From: a virus
Taxonomy: Duplodnaviria; Heunggongvirae; Uroviricota; Caudoviricetes
Length of the DNA stretch: 5,495 bases
Direction: 5' to 3' (one strand)
Virus record (IMG/VR): IMGVR_UViG_2657245015_000016
Location: 1 to 5,495 of that record
Position 1 is the first letter of the stretch; each line of letters begins with the position of its first letter. This document shows positions 553 through 5,495 of the stretch, piece by piece. Position numbers and translations under genes: made by a program. The notes under the pieces are model-generated. The model was not told the DNA's origin, ran no database searches, and saw nothing but the letters and a program-made list of their open reading frames with translations.

Positions 553-1173
553 GTGTCAGACAAACTCTCCGGGATAACTCATCCCGATGACAATCACGAC
601 CGCCCCTGGTGGGGGCTTCCCTGCACAGTGAGGCCCTGTTTTGGCGCTCGTCTGGTGCAAGAGGGTAACCGCCTGCATTACCTTGCCGACCGCGCCGGTA
701 TCAGAGGCCGCTTCAGCGACGCAGATGCATACCATCTGGACCAGGCCTTTCCGCTGCTGATGAAACAACTGGAACTCATGCTCACCAGCGGTGAACTGAA
801 TCCCCGATATCAGCATACCGTCACGCTGTATGCAAAAGGGCTGACCTGCGAAGCCGACACCCTCGGCAAATGTGGCGGAAAGGGTGAGGTTTCCACCGCC
901 TGTAAGGATTGCCGTGGGCGTGGTGTCGCCATTCATCGTGAAGAGTCGGTAAAACGTGGTATGCCTGTTATCAGAGACTGCCAGCGTTGTGGTGGTCGTG
1001 GCTGTGAAAGACTACCATCAACGGAGGCATTTAATGCCATATGCAAAGTGACGAGTGCTATCACGCTTGATACGTGGAAAAAATCAGTGAAACGCTTTTA
1101 CGATACGTTGGTGGTTCGGTTTGACATTGAAGAGGCATGGGCGGAGCGGCAGTTAAAGAGGGTAACGCGATAG
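553..1173 (+). CDS. Chimeric ORF: N-terminal ~105 aa of a CbeA/YeeU/YfjZ-family antitoxin fused in frame to the C-terminal ~100 aa of a lambda-Q-family late antiterminator; probably a junction fusion or pseudogene
   Basis: GTG start at 553 with AGAGGA 8 nt upstream. Residues 1-~105 (MSDKLSGITHPDDNHDRPWWGLPCTVRPCFGARLVQEGNRLHYLADRAGIRG...LTSGELNPRYQHTVTLYAKGLTCEADTLG) carry the hallmark GARLVQEGNRLHYLADRA motif of CbeA/YeeU antitoxins. Residues ~110-206 (ACKDCRGRGVAI...IRDCQRCGGRG...LDTWKKSVKRFYDTLVVRFDIEEAWAERQLKRVTR) align with the lambda Q C-terminus (CRDCHGTGRAV...ECGRCKGVGY...QPTWSRTVKPLYDALVVQCHKEESIADNILNAVTR), including the CxxC...CxxC zinc site. A lambda-like pR' lies immediately downstream. 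Confidence 0.8.
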   Translation: MSDKLSGITHPDDNHDRPWWGLPCTVRPCFGARLVQEGNRLHYLADRAGIRGRFSDADAYHLDQAFPLLMKQLELMLTSGELNPRYQHTVTLYAKGLTCEADTLGKCGGKGEVSTACKDCRGRGVAIHREESVKRGMPVIRDCQRCGGRGCERLPSTEAFNAICKVTSAITLDTWKKSVKRFYDTLVVRFDIEEAWAERQLKRVTR

Positions 1174-1178
1174 TGTTG

Positions 1179-1218
1179 TTGATTTTTCCCGAATCTGTGG
1201 TAAATTTGCTCTAACGAT
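1179..1218 (+). promoter_or_regulatory. pR'-like late promoter with a sigma70-dependent promoter-proximal pause element (the expected Q-utilisation region)
   Basis: TTGATT (1179-1184), a 16-nt spacer, then TAAATT (1201-1206), followed by TGCTCTAACGATGGG. This closely resembles lambda pR' (GGTAAATTTGACTCAACGATGGG) and sits directly after the Q-like stop codon, as in lambdoid phages. Confidence 0.55.
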
Positions 1219-1255
1219 GGGCGTTTTATGCCTGACGTTAGAAGATTTTTTACAC

Positions 1256-1278
1256 CCCGCCGCCTGGCGGGTTTTTTT
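1256..1278 (+). terminator. tR'-like intrinsic terminator ending a short pR' transcript (6S-RNA-like)
   Basis: Stem CCCGCC (1256-1261) pairs with GGCGGG (1266-1271) around loop GCCT, followed by seven T (1272-1278). It lies about 65 nt downstream of the predicted pR' start. Confidence 0.7.
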
Positions 1279-1400
1279 ATGACTGAAATCGCGTCAGTAC
1301 AGTAAACGCGCTGGTGGCGGTGAATACCTGTCTTTCAGCTTGCTGGCTTTTTCGACAAGAGTTATTGGTGTGTCACGTTAACCGGAAAAGGGAAAAAGAC

Positions 1401-1598
1401 ATGCTAAAACAGCAGGATATGACAGAAACCGCCAGAGTAGTGTTTAATGAATTAAGCGTTACCGAACCGGCGACAGTCGGGGAGATTGCACAGAATACTT
1501 ACCTTTCACGCGAACGCTGCCAGTTAATACTGACCCAGCTGGTTATGGCGGGTCTGGCAGACTATCAGTTCGGTTGTTACAGACGCCTTCCGCAGTGA
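1401..1598 (+). CDS. Small (66 aa) winged-helix/DeoR-type HTH protein, hypothetical
   Basis: ATG at 1401 is preceded by an AAGGGAAAAAGAC purine-rich stretch. The segment TVGEIAQNTYLSRERCQLILTQLVMAGL has the pattern of a DeoR-like helix-turn-helix. The stop codon falls in the loop of a terminator hairpin. The longer track ORF starting at 1314 is not preferred because it begins in the tR'-proximal region without a ribosome-binding site. Confidence 0.4.
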   Translation: MLKQQDMTETARVVFNELSVTEPATVGEIAQNTYLSRERCQLILTQLVMAGLADYQFGCYRRLPQ

Positions 1599-1608
1599 AG
1601 GCTTTTTT
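1585..1608 (+). terminator. Intrinsic terminator after the small HTH ORF
   Basis: GCCTTC (1585-1590) pairs with GAAGGC (1597-1602) around loop CGCAGT, followed by TTTTTT (1603-1608). Confidence 0.5.
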
Positions 1609-1748
1609 ATTTGTGGTAAATGGGCGGCTGGTGGGTGTTAGGGGCACCCACCAGCCATCTGCTCATGCGTTGGGTTCACAAGCAAACCTCAGGCCCACTG
1701 CTTTGCGCAAAAGCAGAATGAGCCTATCAGAGACAGGCTTAATGATCC

Positions 1749-2798
1749 ATGCTTAATACTGTAAAAATATCCAGTTGTGAGTTAATCAACGCCGACTGCC
1801 TGGAATTTATCCGGTCGTTACCCGAAAATTCTGTTGACCTGATAGTCACGGACCCGCCGTACTTTAAAGTGAAGCCTGAGGGCTGGGATAACCAGTGGAA
1901 GGGCGACGATGATTACCTGAAGTGGCTGGACCAGTGTCTGGCGCAGTTCTGGCGGGTGCTGAAACCTGCCGGAAGTCTTTACCTGTTCTGTGGTCATCGC
2001 CTGGCATCTGATATCGAAATCATGATGCGTGAACGCTTCAGTGTGCTGAACCATATTATCTGGGCGAAGCCGTCCGGACGCTGGAACGGATGCAACAAGG
2101 AAAGCCTGCGGGCGTATTTCCCCGCCACAGAGCGCATTCTGTTCGCGGAACATTATCAGGGGCCGTATCGTCCGAAAGATGCCGGGTATGCGGCGAAGGG
2201 CAGTGCACTGAAACAGCATGTGATGGCCCCGCTGATTTCTTACTTTCGTGATGCGCGCGCGGCCCTGGGGATAACGGCAAAACAGATTGCAGATGCCACA
2301 GGAAAGAAAAACATGGTGTCGCACTGGTTTGGTACCAGTCAGTGGCAGTTACCGAACGAGGGTGATTACAACAAATTGCAGGCGTTGTTTGCGCGTGTTG
2401 CGGCAGAAAAACATCAGCGCGGGGAACTGGAAAAGCCACACCACCAGCTGGTCAGCACATACAGTGAGCTGAACCGGCAGTATATGGAACTGCTGAGTGA
2501 ATATAAAAATTTGCGGAGGTATTTCGGTGTGACGGTGCAGGTGCCGTACACCGATGTGTGGACGTATAAACCGGTGCAGTACTATCCAGGGAAACATCCG
2601 TGCGAAAAACCGGCAGAAATGTTGCAGCAGATAATCAGCGCAAGTAGTCGTCCTGGTGAGCTGGTTGCGGATTTTTTCATGGGGTCGGGTTCAACGGTAA
2701 AAGCGGCGATGGCACTGGGTCGTCGTGCGATTGGTGTTGAGCTGGAGACCGGACGTTTTGAGCAGACAGTCAGGGAAGTTCAGGATTTAATCGTTTGA
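1749..2798 (+). CDS. Orphan DNA methyltransferase, amino-methyltransferase beta class (N6-adenine or N4-cytosine); motif IV DPPY precedes motif I FxGxG
   Basis: 349-aa ORF. LIVTDPPY lies near the N-terminus (catalytic motif IV) and DFFMGSGST near the C-terminus (AdoMet-binding motif I), with a presumed target-recognition region between them. No restriction endonuclease ORF is adjacent. In-frame TGA at 1743-1745 fixes the start at ATG 1749. Confidence 0.9.
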   Translation: MLNTVKISSCELINADCLEFIRSLPENSVDLIVTDPPYFKVKPEGWDNQWKGDDDYLKWLDQCLAQFWRVLKPAGSLYLFCGHRLASDIEIMMRERFSVLNHIIWAKPSGRWNGCNKESLRAYFPATERILFAEHYQGPYRPKDAGYAAKGSALKQHVMAPLISYFRDARAALGITAKQIADATGKKNMVSHWFGTSQWQLPNEGDYNKLQALFARVAAEKHQRGELEKPHHQLVSTYSELNRQYMELLSEYKNLRRYFGVTVQVPYTDVWTYKPVQYYPGKHPCEKPAEMLQQIISASSRPGELVADFFMGSGSTVKAAMALGRRAIGVELETGRFEQTVREVQDLIV

Positions 2799-2809
2799 AA
2801 CGGATGATA

Positions 2810-2838
2810 TTGAAGAATTAATTACGCGTCGTTATTAT
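2810..2838 (+). promoter_or_regulatory. Candidate sigma70 promoter of the tRNA cluster
   Basis: TTGAAG (2810-2815), a 17-nt spacer, then TATTAT (2833-2838). The predicted start is about 8-10 nt before the first tRNA 5' end at 2848. Confidence 0.5.
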
Positions 2839-2847
2839 GCGGCTCCC

Positions 2848-2923
2848 GGCCCTTTAGCTCAGTGGTGAGAGCGAGCGACTCATAATCGCCAGGTCGCTGG
2901 TTCAAATCCAGCAAGGGCCACCA
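2848..2923 (+). tRNA. ileZ: tRNA-Ile2 (anticodon CAU, lysidine-type, reads AUA); ileX/ileZ-like
   Basis: Hand-folded cloverleaf: acceptor GGCCCTT/AAGGGCC, D-stem GCTC/GAGC, anticodon loop CTCATAA, T-arm GCTGG-TTCAAAT-CCAGC, encoded CCA at 2921-2923. It is near-identical in pattern to E. coli ileX from memory. The CAU anticodon alone cannot exclude tRNA-Met. Confidence 0.85.
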
Positions 2924-2930
2924 TCACATA

Positions 2931-3007
2931 CCGCCATTAGCTCATCGGGATAGAGCGCCAGCCTTCGAAGCTGGCTGCGCGGGGTTCAAGTCCCCGATGG
3001 CGGTCCA
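2931..3007 (+). tRNA. argN: tRNA-Arg (anticodon UCG as read from the fold)
   Basis: Acceptor CCGCCAT/ATGGCGG (7 bp), D-stem GCTC/GAGC, anticodon stem CCAGC/GCTGG with loop CTTCGAA (U33, anticodon TCG, A37), T-arm CGGGG-TTCAAGT-CCCCG, encoded CCA at 3005-3007. It starts 8 nt after the preceding tRNA. Confidence 0.85.
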
Positions 3008-3020
3008 TTATCTGCATCAT

Positions 3021-3097
3021 GCGTTGTTAGCTCAGCCGGACAGAGCAATTGCCTTCTAAGCAATCGGTCACTGGTTCGAATCCAGTACAACGCGCCA
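3021..3097 (+). tRNA. argO: tRNA-Arg (anticodon UCU, reads AGA/AGG rare codons)
   Basis: Acceptor GCGTTGT/ACAACGC, D-stem GCTC/GAGC, anticodon stem ATTGC/GCAAT with loop CTTCTAA (anticodon TCT), T-arm ACTGG-TTCGAAT-CCAGT, discriminator G, CCA at 3095-3097. Confidence 0.88.
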
Positions 3098-3111
3098 CAC
3101 TTATTTTCCCT

Positions 3112-3138
3112 GGCTCGCTTTTGCGGGCCTTTTTTTTT
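3112..3138 (+). terminator. Intrinsic terminator of the tRNA operon
   Basis: GGCTCGC (3112-3118) pairs with GCGGGCC (3123-3129), with one G-U pair, around loop TTTT, followed by nine T (3130-3138). Confidence 0.75.
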
Positions 3139-3144
3139 AAATGT

Positions 3145-3359
3145 CTCACAATTCAGACGGTTGACTGTTGTCTGGTTTGCGGGGAGTTTGTTAAAAGAAA
3201 CTGGCATGGTGAATCCCCCTGTGCGGAGGGGCAATCAGCGAGTAGGTATATGGGATAATCGCGGATTCAGGTGCTGGTACTGAATTCACCGGGAGGCACC
3301 CGGCACCATGCAATGGCACATAGCGCCACTCTCCAGCCCCTCTCCGGAGGGGCTTTTCT
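3145..3359 (+). ncRNA. Candidate structured small RNA, copy A of a tandem paralog pair occupying the stx slot
   Basis: Starts at the conserved CTCACAATTCAG block just after the tRNA terminator. Perfectly conserved blocks are shared with copy B: TTTGTTAAAA, CATGGTGAATCCCCCTG, GCGGAGGGGC, CACCGGGAGGCACCCGGCACCATG. It ends in a terminator (7-bp stem GCCCCTC/GAGGGGC at 3336-3353, then TTTTCT). There is no conserved reading frame between copies. No convincing sigma70 promoter was found, so the 5' end is uncertain. Confidence 0.35.
3336..3359 (+). terminator. Intrinsic terminator closing repeat copy A
   Basis: GCCCCTC (3336-3342), loop TCCG, GAGGGGC (3347-3353), then TTTTCT. Confidence 0.6.
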
Positions 3360-3548
3360 GTGCCGGATACATCACAGTTTCTGGAACCTTAGGTACTACA
3401 GTATCAGTCAGGGTGCTATATTTTCAGATGTGATGAAAGCCTGTCAGCAGGCAGGGCGTATCGGAAATGACCCAGTAGAGAAAACGTTGACTCAGATACC
3501 GGTGCTGAGTTACCGGGAAACCGGCATCACATGACCGCTATCCTTCCA

Positions 3549-3575
3549 GGCCCATCCGCTCCGGTGGGCCTTTTT
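3549..3575 (+). terminator. Intrinsic terminator preceding repeat copy B
   Basis: GGCCCATC (3549-3556) pairs with CGGTGGGCC (3562-3570), including one G-U pair, around a 6-nt loop, followed by TTTTT (3571-3575). Confidence 0.6.
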
Positions 3576-3612
3576 ACTGCAGAAAACAGGTTCCCCGTTA
3601 AATGCTATGTTG

Positions 3613-3846
3613 CTCACAATTCAGTAAGTTGACAGTTGCCTGTCAGACTGGGCATTTGTTAAAAAAATTTCGCATGGTGAATCCCCCTGAGCGGAGGGGC
3701 GACTGGTGACGGTATAATCTCTGATTATCAAAACGAGAATGACGCGGGTTTAGTGGCACCGGGCTGAACTCACCGGGAGGCACCCGGCACCATGTGCATG
3801 ATGATACAGATACGCGGCTTTAGCCCCTCTCCGGAGGGGTTTTCTT
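3613..3846 (+). ncRNA. Candidate structured small RNA, copy B of the tandem paralog pair
   Basis: Same conserved block order as copy A, beginning CTCACAATTCAG at 3613 and ending with terminator CCCCTC/GAGGGG (3824-3839) plus TTTTCTT. The internal 5-bp hairpin CCCCT-N6-AGGGG and the CCGGG-AGGCA-CCCGG hairpin are preserved in both copies. Confidence 0.35.
3824..3846 (+). terminator. Intrinsic terminator closing repeat copy B
   Basis: CCCCTC (3824-3829), loop TCCG, GAGGGG (3834-3839), then TTTTCTT (3840-3846). Confidence 0.6.
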
Positions 3847-3852
3847 GTGGGC

Positions 3853-3880
3853 AAAAAAAGCCCGCGCTGGGAGACGCGGG
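3853..3880 (-). terminator. Candidate minus-strand (or bidirectional) intrinsic terminator
   Basis: On the plus strand, AAAAAAA is followed by GCCCGCG-CTGGGAGA-CGCGGGC (perfect 7-bp stem). Read on the minus strand this is a hairpin followed by a T-run. Confidence 0.35.
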
Positions 3881-3949
3881 CGGCAAGGAATAAACAATAA
3901 AACGTGAAGTAATATTTCAGCTGGCGAATAATACCCCATAGTAATCACT

Positions 3950-3972
3950 CTGCGCAACTGCGCGGTCTTTTT
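3950..3972 (+). terminator. Weak candidate intrinsic terminator upstream of the esterase gene
   Basis: CTGCGC (3950-3955) pairs with GCGCGG (3960-3965) around loop AACT, followed by TCTTTTT. Confidence 0.3.
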
Positions 3973-4074
3973 CGAATTGCGGGCTGTCGTCTCTCTTCTG
4001 CCATTGTCCTGTAACTTCCGGACTTCAGCCCGCTCCTTATTTTACTCACAATATTATCCCGGCCGGGAGGATTC

Positions 4075-5322
4075 ATGGCATTTAAACACTATGACGTGGT
4101 CAGGGCGGTATCGCCGTCAGACCTTGCGAAACGACTGACACAAAAACTGAAGGAGGGCTGGCAGCCGTTTGGTAGTCCGGTGGCCATAACCCCTTATACC
4201 CTGATGCAGGCGATTGCAGCAGAAGGTGATGTGGTGGTCAGTGGTGCAACTGAGCCGGATTGGTACTACGTCATCGTACTGGCCGGGCAGTCCAATGCCA
4301 TGGCTTACGGTGAAGGGCTTCCGCTGCCGGATTCATACGATGCGCCCCATCCGCGCATTAAGCAACTGGCCCGTCGTAACACAGTGACTCCCGGTGGTGA
4401 AGTATGCGTATTTAACGACATCATTCCTGCTGACCATTGTCTGCATGATGTTCAGGATATGAGTACGATTAACCATCCCCGGGCTGACCTGAGCAAAGGG
4501 CAGTACGGCTGTGTCGGACAGGGCTTACATATTGCCAAAAAACTGCTTCCGTATATCCCTAATAACGCGGGGATCCTGCTGGTACCATGCTGTCGTGGTG
4601 GTTCGGCATTCACCCAGGGCACGGAGGGGACATTCAGCGAGTCCACGGGGGCCAGTCAGGATTCGGCTCGCTGGGGAGTGGGTAAGCCGTTATATCAGGA
4701 TCTGCTTTTCCGCACGAAGGCAGCATTGCAGAAAAACCCGAAAAACGTTTTGCTGGCGATATGCTGGATGCAGGGGGAATTCGATATGACGAATGCCAGT
4801 TACGCCCAGCAGCCAGCAGCATTTCTTGCAATGGTACAGCAGTTCCGTGCTGACCTTGCCGGGCTGGCGGCGCAGTGTCACGGTGGAAGTCCGGCATCAG
4901 TCCCCTGGATTTGTGGCGACACGACATACGCGTGGAAACAAGAACACGGTACGCAATATGAAGTGGTATATGGTGCATATAAAGGTAAAGAATCCCAGCA
5001 GATTTATTTTGTTCCCTTTATGACCGATGGTAGCGGAGTTAATACACCGACAAACAACCCGTCAGAAGATCCTGATATTGCCGGGTCTGGTTATTACGGT
5101 TCGGCATCCCGAACGAACAAAAACTGGGTATCATCAAATCGCCCGACGCATTTCAGCTCATGGGCGCGTCGTGGCATTATTCCCGATCGTATGGCAACTG
5201 CTATTCTGAACGTAGCCGGTCGCACCTTAGCCTTCATTAGTGGTAAGGCACCGGAAATCAAACCCTCGCCCGGCGGCGACACTCCATCGGGGCCGTCTGA
5301 TGGCCAATCAGAAAGGCGATGA
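4075..5322 (+). CDS. nanS-p: NanS-p-like prophage sialate O-acetylesterase (N-terminal DUF1737-like region plus SGNH/SASA esterase domain with a GQSN motif); possibly C-terminally truncated
   Basis: 415-aa ORF with a strong GGGAGGA ribosome-binding site 4 nt before ATG 4075. The N-terminus MAFKHYDVVRAVSPSDLAKRLTQKLKEGWQPFGSPVAITPY matches my recollection of the DUF1737 start of the gene found downstream of stxAB in 933W-like phages. VIVLAGQSNAMAYGEG carries the GQSN catalytic-serine motif of NanS-type 9-O-acetyl esterases. Its position downstream of the ileZ-argN-argO tRNAs matches lambdoid late-region synteny. Confidence 0.75.
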   Translation: MAFKHYDVVRAVSPSDLAKRLTQKLKEGWQPFGSPVAITPYTLMQAIAAEGDVVVSGATEPDWYYVIVLAGQSNAMAYGEGLPLPDSYDAPHPRIKQLARRNTVTPGGEVCVFNDIIPADHCLHDVQDMSTINHPRADLSKGQYGCVGQGLHIAKKLLPYIPNNAGILLVPCCRGGSAFTQGTEGTFSESTGASQDSARWGVGKPLYQDLLFRTKAALQKNPKNVLLAICWMQGEFDMTNASYAQQPAAFLAMVQQFRADLAGLAAQCHGGSPASVPWICGDTTYAWKQEHGTQYEVVYGAYKGKESQQIYFVPFMTDGSGVNTPTNNPSEDPDIAGSGYYGSASRTNKNWVSSNRPTHFSSWARRGIIPDRMATAILNVAGRTLAFISGKAPEIKPSPGGDTPSGPSDGQSERR

Positions 5323-5385
5323 CACCCACGCCCTGGGCCAGCCAATACGCGGTCATGATAAATCCTTATCAGGTATGGAAAAGCA

Positions 5386-5418
5386 AACGGCGCTTCACAT
5401 TATGAAACGCCGTTTTTT
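5386..5418. terminator. Hairpin terminator, probably bidirectional, between convergent genes
   Basis: AACGGCG (5386-5392) pairs with CGCCGTT (5408-5414), with an inner TTCA/TGAA helix. It is flanked by an A-rich stretch upstream and TTTTTT downstream (5413-5418). Confidence 0.45.
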
Positions 5419-5495
5419 ATTAACAACTCATTTCGACTTTATAGCGTTACGCCGCTTTTGAAGATCGCCAGTTCGCGGAAGTCGTTACGCTCGTT

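Follow-up and report, generated by a model that had tools for sequence, protein, structure and literature searches.

The virus record IMGVR_UViG_2657245015_000016 (Caudoviricetes) is a stretch of 5,495 nucleotides (nt), referred to below at its full length as the window, and its plus strand carries two neighbouring genes in a late operon. The first is a small open reading frame (ORF) at 1401..1598 (65 amino acids (aa) plus stop) for a stand-alone winged-helix protein of the family phrog_331, while the second, at 1749..2798, encodes a 349-aa methyltransferase, which is an orthologue of M.EcoGII and is assigned by homology to the beta class of N6-adenine methyltransferases. Both lie between the terminator of the late promoter and a cluster of transfer RNA (tRNA) genes, which is where an earlier note, made from the letters alone, had placed a small winged-helix protein and an orphan beta-class methyltransferase. 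The coordinates of both ORFs and the length of the methyltransferase given there are correct, whereas the small protein has 65 residues rather than 66.

This gene pair is an already known and very common module, which has been annotated since the phages SfV and phiP27, and the index of the assembly collection lists the identical 65-aa protein in 32,001 blocks, so that the arrangement is not the unusual one for which it had been taken. The earlier note was right about the ORF pair and incomplete about the locus, since it overlooked both a truncated, chimeric Q gene and the structured nature of the 'spacer' at 1600-1750.

The methyltransferase and the small gene beside it

Both of the motifs from which a DPPY...FxGxG methyltransferase had been proposed can be read directly in the protein, with DPPY at residues 35-38 (nt 1851-1862) and FxGxG at residues 310-314 (nt 2676-2690; F310-M-G312-S-G314). 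The hidden Markov model check agrees with this, as Pfam N6_N4_Mtase (PF01555) matches residues 29-340 with E = 1.3e-43 (150 bits against a cutoff of 26.7), and PADLOC MTase_II matches with E = 1.7e-164. The order of parts is the beta-type permutation, in which DPPY is N-terminal, the target-recognition region central and FxGxG C-terminal. The two catalytic Rossmann-fold halves align separately with the solved RsrI, CcrM and MboIIA enzymes (E 1e-14 to 1e-26), while the central region, residues ~115-265, has no counterpart in these three; in M.EcoGII-type enzymes it has been described as a helix-turn-helix (HTH) four-helix bundle plus a charged linker (PMC11551740).

The enzyme is 92.8% identical to that of phage 1720a-02 and identical to M.EcoGII at 333/350 positions with 2 gaps, the latter value being based on a machine-read copy of the sequence in the supplement of PMC11551740, in which three errors of reading are evident; once these are discounted, the identity is ~97%. 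Judged by its sequence and its position, the methyltransferase belongs to the M.EcoGII family. Experiments have established M.EcoGII, likewise of 349 aa, as an N6-adenine methyltransferase without sequence specificity; it was said to belong to 'a very large family' of E. coli prophages, and a very similar counterpart was reported in phage 1720a-02 (PMC5778455). Homology would therefore extend the non-specific N6-adenine activity to the window enzyme, and this supersedes the view that specificity could not be read from the sequence. It has also been reported that M.EcoGII is not expressed in the lysogen and is harmful if expressed constitutively, and its authors proposed that induction turns on its expression (PMC5778455). 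More recently, M.EcoGII and the assayed reconstructed ancestral variants were found by nanopore sequencing to be largely non-sequence-specific on RNA (the SUPREM paper, PMC11551740). In addition, single-molecule real-time sequencing of Shiga toxin-producing E. coli strains listed homologues as 'nonspecific', with no extra methylated motifs in growing cells (PMC6602927).

The small ORF is a real and conserved gene under strong purifying selection, because the ratio of nonsynonymous to synonymous divergence (dN/dS) is <=0.08 wherever it is computable, with dN of 0.05-0.13 and saturated synonymous sites among Escherichia, Klebsiella, Salmonella, Buttiauxella and Citrobacter. The small protein is more conserved than the methyltransferase, for which dN is 0.12-0.22 in the same comparisons. 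PHROGs places it in phrog_331 ('unknown function', E = 1.4e-37). The name given by the annotation pipeline PGAP, 'TrmB family transcriptional regulator', was rejected as a family assignment, since TrmB reaches 18 bits against a Pfam gathering cutoff of 25.6 and no NCBIfam model matches the protein, which leaves phrog_331 as the sole match; MarR_2, DprA_WH and HTH_24 are likewise below threshold in Pfam. The 'DeoR-like' label of the earlier note has to be given up as well. No DeoR profile appears among hits with E <=0.1, the fold neighbours are winged helices of IclR, MarR and O-methyltransferase type, and a protein of 65 aa is too short to hold the sugar-phosphate sensor domain of DeoR.

The AlphaFold2 model of the small protein (pLDDT 89.7) has the order helix-helix-helix-strand-strand, that is, three helices and a beta hairpin, and in Foldseek it resembles, with TM scores of 0.7-0.84, the winged-helix domains found in O-methyltransferases, IclR, MarR/OhrR and SelB. 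Identity with the controller (C) proteins of restriction-modification (R-M) systems was rejected on the same model and fold neighbours and on the lack of a match to HTH_3, and the expectation of a fold class different from that of the classical C protein is thereby borne out. As modelled, the small protein is a winged helix, and it fits neither the DeoR family nor the C proteins. When 1.84 billion representatives were searched by profile, 85 relatives came back, and as nearly all of these are short and stand-alone, fused domains gave no clue to its function.

The small gene appears to have signals of its own. Its terminator (t2), which had been proposed previously, lies at 1585..1612 on the plus strand and consists of a hairpin over the stop codon (1585-1602, -8.9 kcal/mol) followed by TTTTTTATTT; the hairpin is retained with changed sequence in Klebsiella, Salmonella and Buttiauxella, where the T-tract is weaker. 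About 25 nt before the start codon lies a conserved non-coding block (1339..1376, plus strand) of the form CTTGCTG-N9/10-AC(C/A)AGAGTTAT..GT.TGTCAC, which has two boxes at fixed spacing. Across 33 loci of many genera this block changes little or not at all, while its flanks and internal spacer vary; it survives in a distant, AT-rich Proteus-like lineage (locus L237, 2932-2966) and is missing wherever the small ORF is missing. The small gene may have its promoter or operator here. An RNA hairpin, a LexA box, a CRP site and a sigma-E or sigma-54 promoter were also considered for the block, and none gave a convincing fit by eye. As to the moron position claimed for the pair, terminators are found on both sides of the small ORF, namely tR' before it and the hairpin with its T-run after it, whereas for the promoter that a moron would own the two-box block is a possible candidate, which stays below sigma-70 criteria.

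Every copy of the 65-aa protein that was inspected lies 150 nt upstream of the methyltransferase, regardless of the type of Q or of insertions on the Q side. The order Q, small ORF, methyltransferase and then tRNAs, stx or lysis genes is found in prophages of E. coli, Salmonella, Klebsiella, Citrobacter and Buttiauxella as well as in phages 1720a-02, SfV and phiP27; the Q type differs among loci (PF03589, PF06323, PF06530), and the module is constant. The pair occurs in 57 phage records, and the small gene is present in 114/120 viral contigs that bear the methyltransferase leader. Among species-level loci with this leader it is present in 29/45 and absent from 16/45, and some of these 16 retain the final bases of the small ORF, which points to secondary loss. 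The arrangement extends to distant homologues of the small protein (profile E = 1e-14 and 4e-6), whose genes adjoin that of an N6_N4 methyltransferase on its upstream side, again in the stretch from Q to the lysis genes. Overall, the small gene accompanies the methyltransferase faithfully, and the link is not absolute. In one locus (L008), a deletion fuses the methyltransferase with nanS-p.

No restriction endonuclease or nuclease gene is present in the window, nor beside the pair in the more than 20 related contexts inspected, where the neighbours are Q, tRNAs, stx, nanS-p and holin/lysozyme genes, and the methyltransferase is an orphan as had been supposed. Some loci carry inserted genes on the Q side of the small ORF (a GIY-YIG nuclease in phiP27, GmrSD plus HEPN in L008, AAA_15 in L006 and TfpB in L003, among others); these are of varied kinds and were rejected as cognate endonucleases.

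In more distant homologues, the slot upstream of the methyltransferase may be filled by other small genes. The slot of a 39%-identical methyltransferase in Acinetobacter (L081, 2820-3008) holds a Mu Com-type zinc ribbon (PF10122, 48 bits against 22.9), and a weaker Com-like ORF precedes a distant homologue in Vibrio (L077, ~2826-2939). As well, an Ogr/Delta zinc finger is found in Shewanella (L071, 2548-2799) and a 29%-identical winged-helix relative in Pseudocitrobacter (L068, 2506-2733). The Com-type and Ogr/Delta genes in this slot suggest that small upstream regulators may be a general feature of such methyltransferase genes.

The pair is probably the standard accessory module that lambdoid (Stx-type) prophages carry between Q and the lysis genes, consisting of an orphan, non-specific N6-adenine methyltransferase and its usual small winged-helix gene, and it would serve anti-restriction upon late induction. 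A rather improbable alternative is that the main role of the enzyme is not protection from restriction but epigenetic or RNA-level reprogramming during lytic growth, for instance as a packaging or replication mark or through RNA methylation. M.EcoGII does methylate adenine in RNA and in DNA:RNA hybrids (PMC5778455; PMC11551740), and the same phages often carry further Dam- or Dcm-type methyltransferases (PF05869, PF00145), by which restriction cover may already exist. However, no phenotype of this kind was found in the literature covered, and late expression before packaging, non-specificity and the wide host range of the prophages would suit a broad evasion of restriction.

A structured leader between the two genes

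The methyltransferase gene is preceded by a conserved and covarying leader of ~135 nt (1614..1748, plus strand). Some 130 nt of it show 75-85% nucleotide identity across ten genera (Escherichia, Salmonella, Klebsiella, Citrobacter, Enterobacter, Kosakonia, Mixta, Erwinia, Rosenbergiella and Tatumella), whether the small gene is present or absent. RNAalifold predicts a long-range helix P1 (1621-1625 with 1693-1697) that encloses the hairpins P2 (1626-1637 with 1645-1656) and P3 (1660-1663 and 1666-1667 with 1677-1678 and 1681-1684) in a three-way junction, after which comes the hairpin P4 (1698-1704 with 1710-1716); a further, weakly supported helix P5 (1726-1729 with 1743-1746) would lie beside the start codon.

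Compensatory double changes occur at 11 pairs in a MAFFT alignment of 63 distinct leader sequences, compared with 5.3 +/- 1.0 in shuffled alignments, and 0/500 shuffles reached so high a count; the closing pair of P3, for example, is seen as C-G, U-A, A-U and U-G. In a second, model-fitted alignment, which leans towards the structure by construction, double changes are found at 26/33 pairs against 5.7 +/- 1.7 after shuffling. The G-U pairs favour the methyltransferase strand, and the single-sequence fold has z = -4.7. With a covariance model built on the leader alignment (R1), the window reaches 137 bits (E = 6e-31), and when 84 loci (665 kb) were searched with this model, 76/76 matches at E <=0.01 sat just upstream of a methyltransferase gene, at the expected position. 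Among these are weak matches that precede methyltransferases of only 41-58% identity to the window protein (in Vibrio, Pseudocitrobacter and an unclassified gammaproteobacterium), and in them the helices are rebuilt with other base pairs.

The leader was also considered as coding sequence, in view of a 33-codon ORF with an ATG start (1620-1721) and a 60-codon ORF (1574-1756), and this was rejected, because one-base indels shift the frame between genera and variable positions gather in loops rather than at third codon positions. No family of Rfam 15 matched in two scans, one of them focused and permissive; the sole signal was P26 on the opposite strand, at 24 bits against a threshold of 36. Moreover, a literature search returned no described RNA motif or regulator of an M.EcoGII-type methyltransferase. 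The leader appears to be undescribed and is possibly a new regulatory RNA.

Two features bear on how the leader might work. The start of the methyltransferase has essentially no Shine-Dalgarno sequence in any genus examined (-0.4 to -3.3 kcal/mol, compared with -10.3 for nanS-p). In addition, the 5' strand of P1 has two conserved alternative partners, GCCCA or GCUCAU, the latter within P3, so that two exclusive conformations are possible; the pairing with GCUCAU can form in 97% of alignment cells and shows no double changes. Because of these alternative partners the layout fits a switch. It is tentatively suggested, as a reading with somewhat less than even chances, that the leader is an undescribed cis-regulatory RNA of M.EcoGII-type methyltransferase genes with the layout of a translation-gating switch, and that the winged-helix protein and the block at 1339-1376 belong to the same circuit. 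Such a switch would respond to a ligand, a protein or the enzyme itself and thereby gate translation of a toxic enzyme.

Two variants of this region were observed. Four viral contigs (L130, L168, L194 and L213) retain the small ORF and ~45 nt at the 5' end of the leader, beyond which an AT-rich gene encoding a 237-aa protein takes the place of both the rest of the leader and the methyltransferase; this shows recombination inside the leader. In the Proteus-like lineage (L237, 3196-3270; also L235 and L236), only 73 nt separate the small gene from the methyltransferase, and in place of the long leader there is a hairpin that starts with GCTGGTGG, resembling the 5' strand of P2, together with T6, and then a normal Shine-Dalgarno sequence.

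These observations also bear on what the small protein does. In phage Mu, Com activates translation of mom. The pair in the window could likewise be one of translational control or of antidote and poison, in which the small protein acts after transcription, through the leader RNA or on the enzyme, to restrain or activate the methyltransferase. This is an unlikely explanation, though several observations fit it. M.EcoGII is deleterious when expressed (PMC5778455); the terminator before the small gene, the conserved block and the hairpin after it have the layout of an autonomous unit; and the methyltransferase has a structured leader ahead of it and no Shine-Dalgarno sequence. Mu Com-type and weaker Com-like genes precede the distant Acinetobacter and Vibrio homologues, respectively, and RNA-bound SelB winged-helix domains are among the fold matches. 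Nevertheless, those RNA-binding matches are no better than the DNA-binding ones, the Proteus-like lineage combines the small gene with a short terminator and a normal Shine-Dalgarno sequence instead of the long leader, and the leader persists with an intact methyltransferase where the small gene is missing, which makes an obligatory activator unlikely.

A similarly doubtful possibility is that the winged-helix protein is a controller in the manner of R-M systems, which would bind DNA upstream of the methyltransferase or at its own promoter and switch transcription of the methyltransferase. The position of the small gene directly upstream, kept even in distant homologues, would suit such a controller, as would the DNA-binding type of its fold, with IclR and MarR among the nearest structures, and the block at 1339-1376 could serve as its operator. 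Yet there is neither an Xre/HTH_3 match nor an endonuclease to be controlled, and the interval between the genes holds a hairpin/terminator and the leader instead of an evident methyltransferase promoter. The covariation of the leader helices with G-U pairs also points to RNA rather than to a DNA operator, and in roughly a third of species-level loci the methyltransferase is intact although the small gene is gone.

Proposed late control and the meaning of the module

Upstream of the pair, the window holds what is left of the module's antiterminator gene. A chimeric ORF (553..1173, plus strand, 206 aa) joins a Pfam CbeA_antitoxin domain (residues 18-108) to an Antiterm domain (residues 111-198); base by base, the CbeA/YeeU part ends at nt 867 and the C-terminal Antiterm domain of a lambdoid Q begins at nt 871. 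The three bases AAA at the join fit neither parent, the parents share just TGTGG, and the fusion is in frame. Intact Q in relatives has 273 aa and the chimera keeps only the C-terminal Antiterm domain, so that the module's own Q is truncated here and this copy has lost it.

Directly after Q lies a putative late promoter pR' (1179..1206, plus strand), which reads TTGATT, a 16-nt spacer and TG-n-TAAATT, with an element AACGAT at 1213-1218 downstream; other loci show this stretch again behind Q, AACGATGGGC included. This promoter counts as putative because the candidate scores under the threshold of the promoter scan. Ahead of the small ORF follows the intrinsic terminator tR' (1256..1278, plus strand), with the hairpin CCCGCC-GCCT-GGCGGG (1256-1271) and T7 (-12.6 kcal/mol). 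A terminator is found at the same relative position in every locus bearing the small ORF (33/33 aligned loci), and the annotation of SfV also places one there. The transcript expected from pR' to tR' would be ~65 nt long (~1213-1278) and contain AACGATGGGC; by position alone, it matches lambda 6S RNA and the StxS small RNA (sRNA) of Stx phages.

With these elements, the anti-restriction module can be pictured as follows. In the lysogen, transcripts from pR' would end at tR' and any leakage at t2, which would keep the toxic methyltransferase silent, while after induction a Q-modified RNA polymerase would pass both terminators. In loci without the small ORF, the leader comes directly after tR' and no shared promoter is present upstream, which is consistent with transcription of the leader by read-through from pR'. 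The leader may then set or gate translation of the methyltransferase, and the enzyme would methylate adenines of the replicating phage DNA in any context before packaging, so as to shield the progeny DNA from the many restriction systems that such methylation blocks. Binding to nucleic acid is the most likely activity of the winged-helix protein, which would tune or restrain the methyltransferase, with DNA, RNA or the enzyme as its target. Since Q is truncated in the contig, activation of the window copy would depend on a compatible Q from another prophage.

Several points weigh against this account. The window copy has lost the module's own Q. The ~12 real substitutions relative to M.EcoGII lie nearly all within residues 148-243, and because they cluster in the target-recognition region, an altered specificity of this allele is possible. 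The anti-restriction role is itself an inference of the authors of M.EcoGII rather than a demonstrated phenotype (PMC5778455). With regard to the small gene, only 1/5 AlphaFold2 models of its protein is confident, and the block at 1339-1376 fails the canonical sigma-70 consensus criteria. About a third of species-level loci have an intact methyltransferase in its absence, from which it follows that it is not required for methyltransferase function, and in 4/120 viral contigs, the recombinants described above, it is kept with the 237-aa protein in place of the methyltransferase.

The two flagged genes add nothing new in themselves, being another copy of a published prophage methyltransferase, which is commercially available as a reagent, and its companion, and the point of interest is their control. 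No explanation of how M.EcoGII is kept off and then turned on was found in the M.EcoGII paper (PMC5778455) or the SUPREM paper (PMC11551740). The locus offers candidate control elements in two serial terminators, a start codon without a Shine-Dalgarno sequence, a covarying leader, and a winged-helix gene with its conserved block. Should the leader prove to be a true regulatory RNA, it would represent a new motif class in enterobacterial phages and would provide a handle on the expression of an enzyme that has been presented as a tool for DNA and RNA methylation (PMC5778455; PMC11551740).

Surroundings of the module and comparison with known systems

Downstream of the methyltransferase are three phage tRNA genes (2848..3097, plus strand) with anticodons CAT, TCG and TCT, which correspond to the ileZ-argN-argO set of Stx phages. 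The first (2848-2923) is called tRNA-Met (CAT) by ARAGORN and is annotated as tRNA-Ile (ileZ-type) in RefSeq relatives and phiP27. Two full copies of the sRNA STnc100 (RF02076) follow at 3175-3365 and 3643-3852 (136 and 161 bits), with a weak, degenerate third copy at 3404-3577. They lie between the tRNAs and nanS-p, the slot of stx in Stx phages, and a 2026 preprint has related STnc100 to PasD sRNAs found beside sialic acid esterase genes. A nanS-p-like esterase gene with DUF1737 and SASA domains (4075-5322, 415 aa) breaks off at 5303, where the first 52 nt of ygjV are joined to it; its relatives have 617-618 aa.

The window is the entire 5,495-bp contig CDRU01000182.1 of the draft assembly GCA_000946335.1 and is a mosaic of three unrelated pieces. 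The first (nt 1-867) matches CP4-type islands from many E. coli at 100% identity and carries, according to Pfam, the 3' end of radC/yeeS, the DUF987 gene yeeT (169-390) and the 5' part of the antitoxin gene cbeA/yeeU. The second (nt 871-5303) corresponds to the late region of lambdoid prophages, with identity <=98.4% and matches in 73 complete E. coli genomes, and constitutes a 4.4-kb prophage remnant from the truncated Q to the truncated nanS-p. The third (nt 5304-5495) is core chromosome from the start of ygjV through the end of uxaA. Neither of the joins, 867/871 and 5303/5304, is present in any complete E. coli genome. The right-hand join also occurs in a second assembly (GCA_000946315.1), whereas a pattern scan of genome contigs for the left join gave 0 matches, a look-up of the exact chimeric protein returned no record, and the join is seen in the draft contig CDRU01000182.1 alone. 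The two joins may be real deletions or assembly artefacts.

The closest known systems are M.EcoGII/M.EcoGI of E. coli O104:H4 C227-11 (Murray et al. 2018, PMC5778455), which are like the window enzyme in their 349-aa length, motif order, prophage site and orphan status. The window copy differs in its substitutions, mainly at residues 148-243, and in lying in a fragment with a truncated Q, and its activity is suggested by this likeness. The same pair in the same order, with ~150 nt between the genes, is found as orf47/orf48 in SfV, as L23/L24 in phiP27 (Stx2e), and in Stx2a/2c/2d phages and 1720a-02, again with Q on one side and tRNA, stx or lysis genes on the other. Identity between the window and these phages amounts to 94-100% for the small protein and 88-93% for the methyltransferase. 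SfV, phiP27 and the other phages are complete with an intact Q, in contrast to the 4.4-kb fragment of the window, and Stx phages hold stx in the slot where the window has its two STnc100 copies. Compared with M.RsrI, CcrM and M.MboIIA, the enzyme shares the Rossmann halves and not the central part at ~115-265.

Among systems of control, the C proteins of R-M systems are likewise small proteins of DNA-binding type encoded directly upstream of a modification gene; the window pair departs from them in having a winged helix instead of an Xre-type HTH, no endonuclease, and a terminator-like hairpin before the methyltransferase. The com-mom operon of phage Mu resembles the pair in a toxic, late, adenine-modifying enzyme, a small gene immediately upstream and a structured region at the start of translation. 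In comparison with Mu, a winged helix takes the place of the zinc ribbon and a methyltransferase that of Mom, and the small gene is dispensable in many loci.

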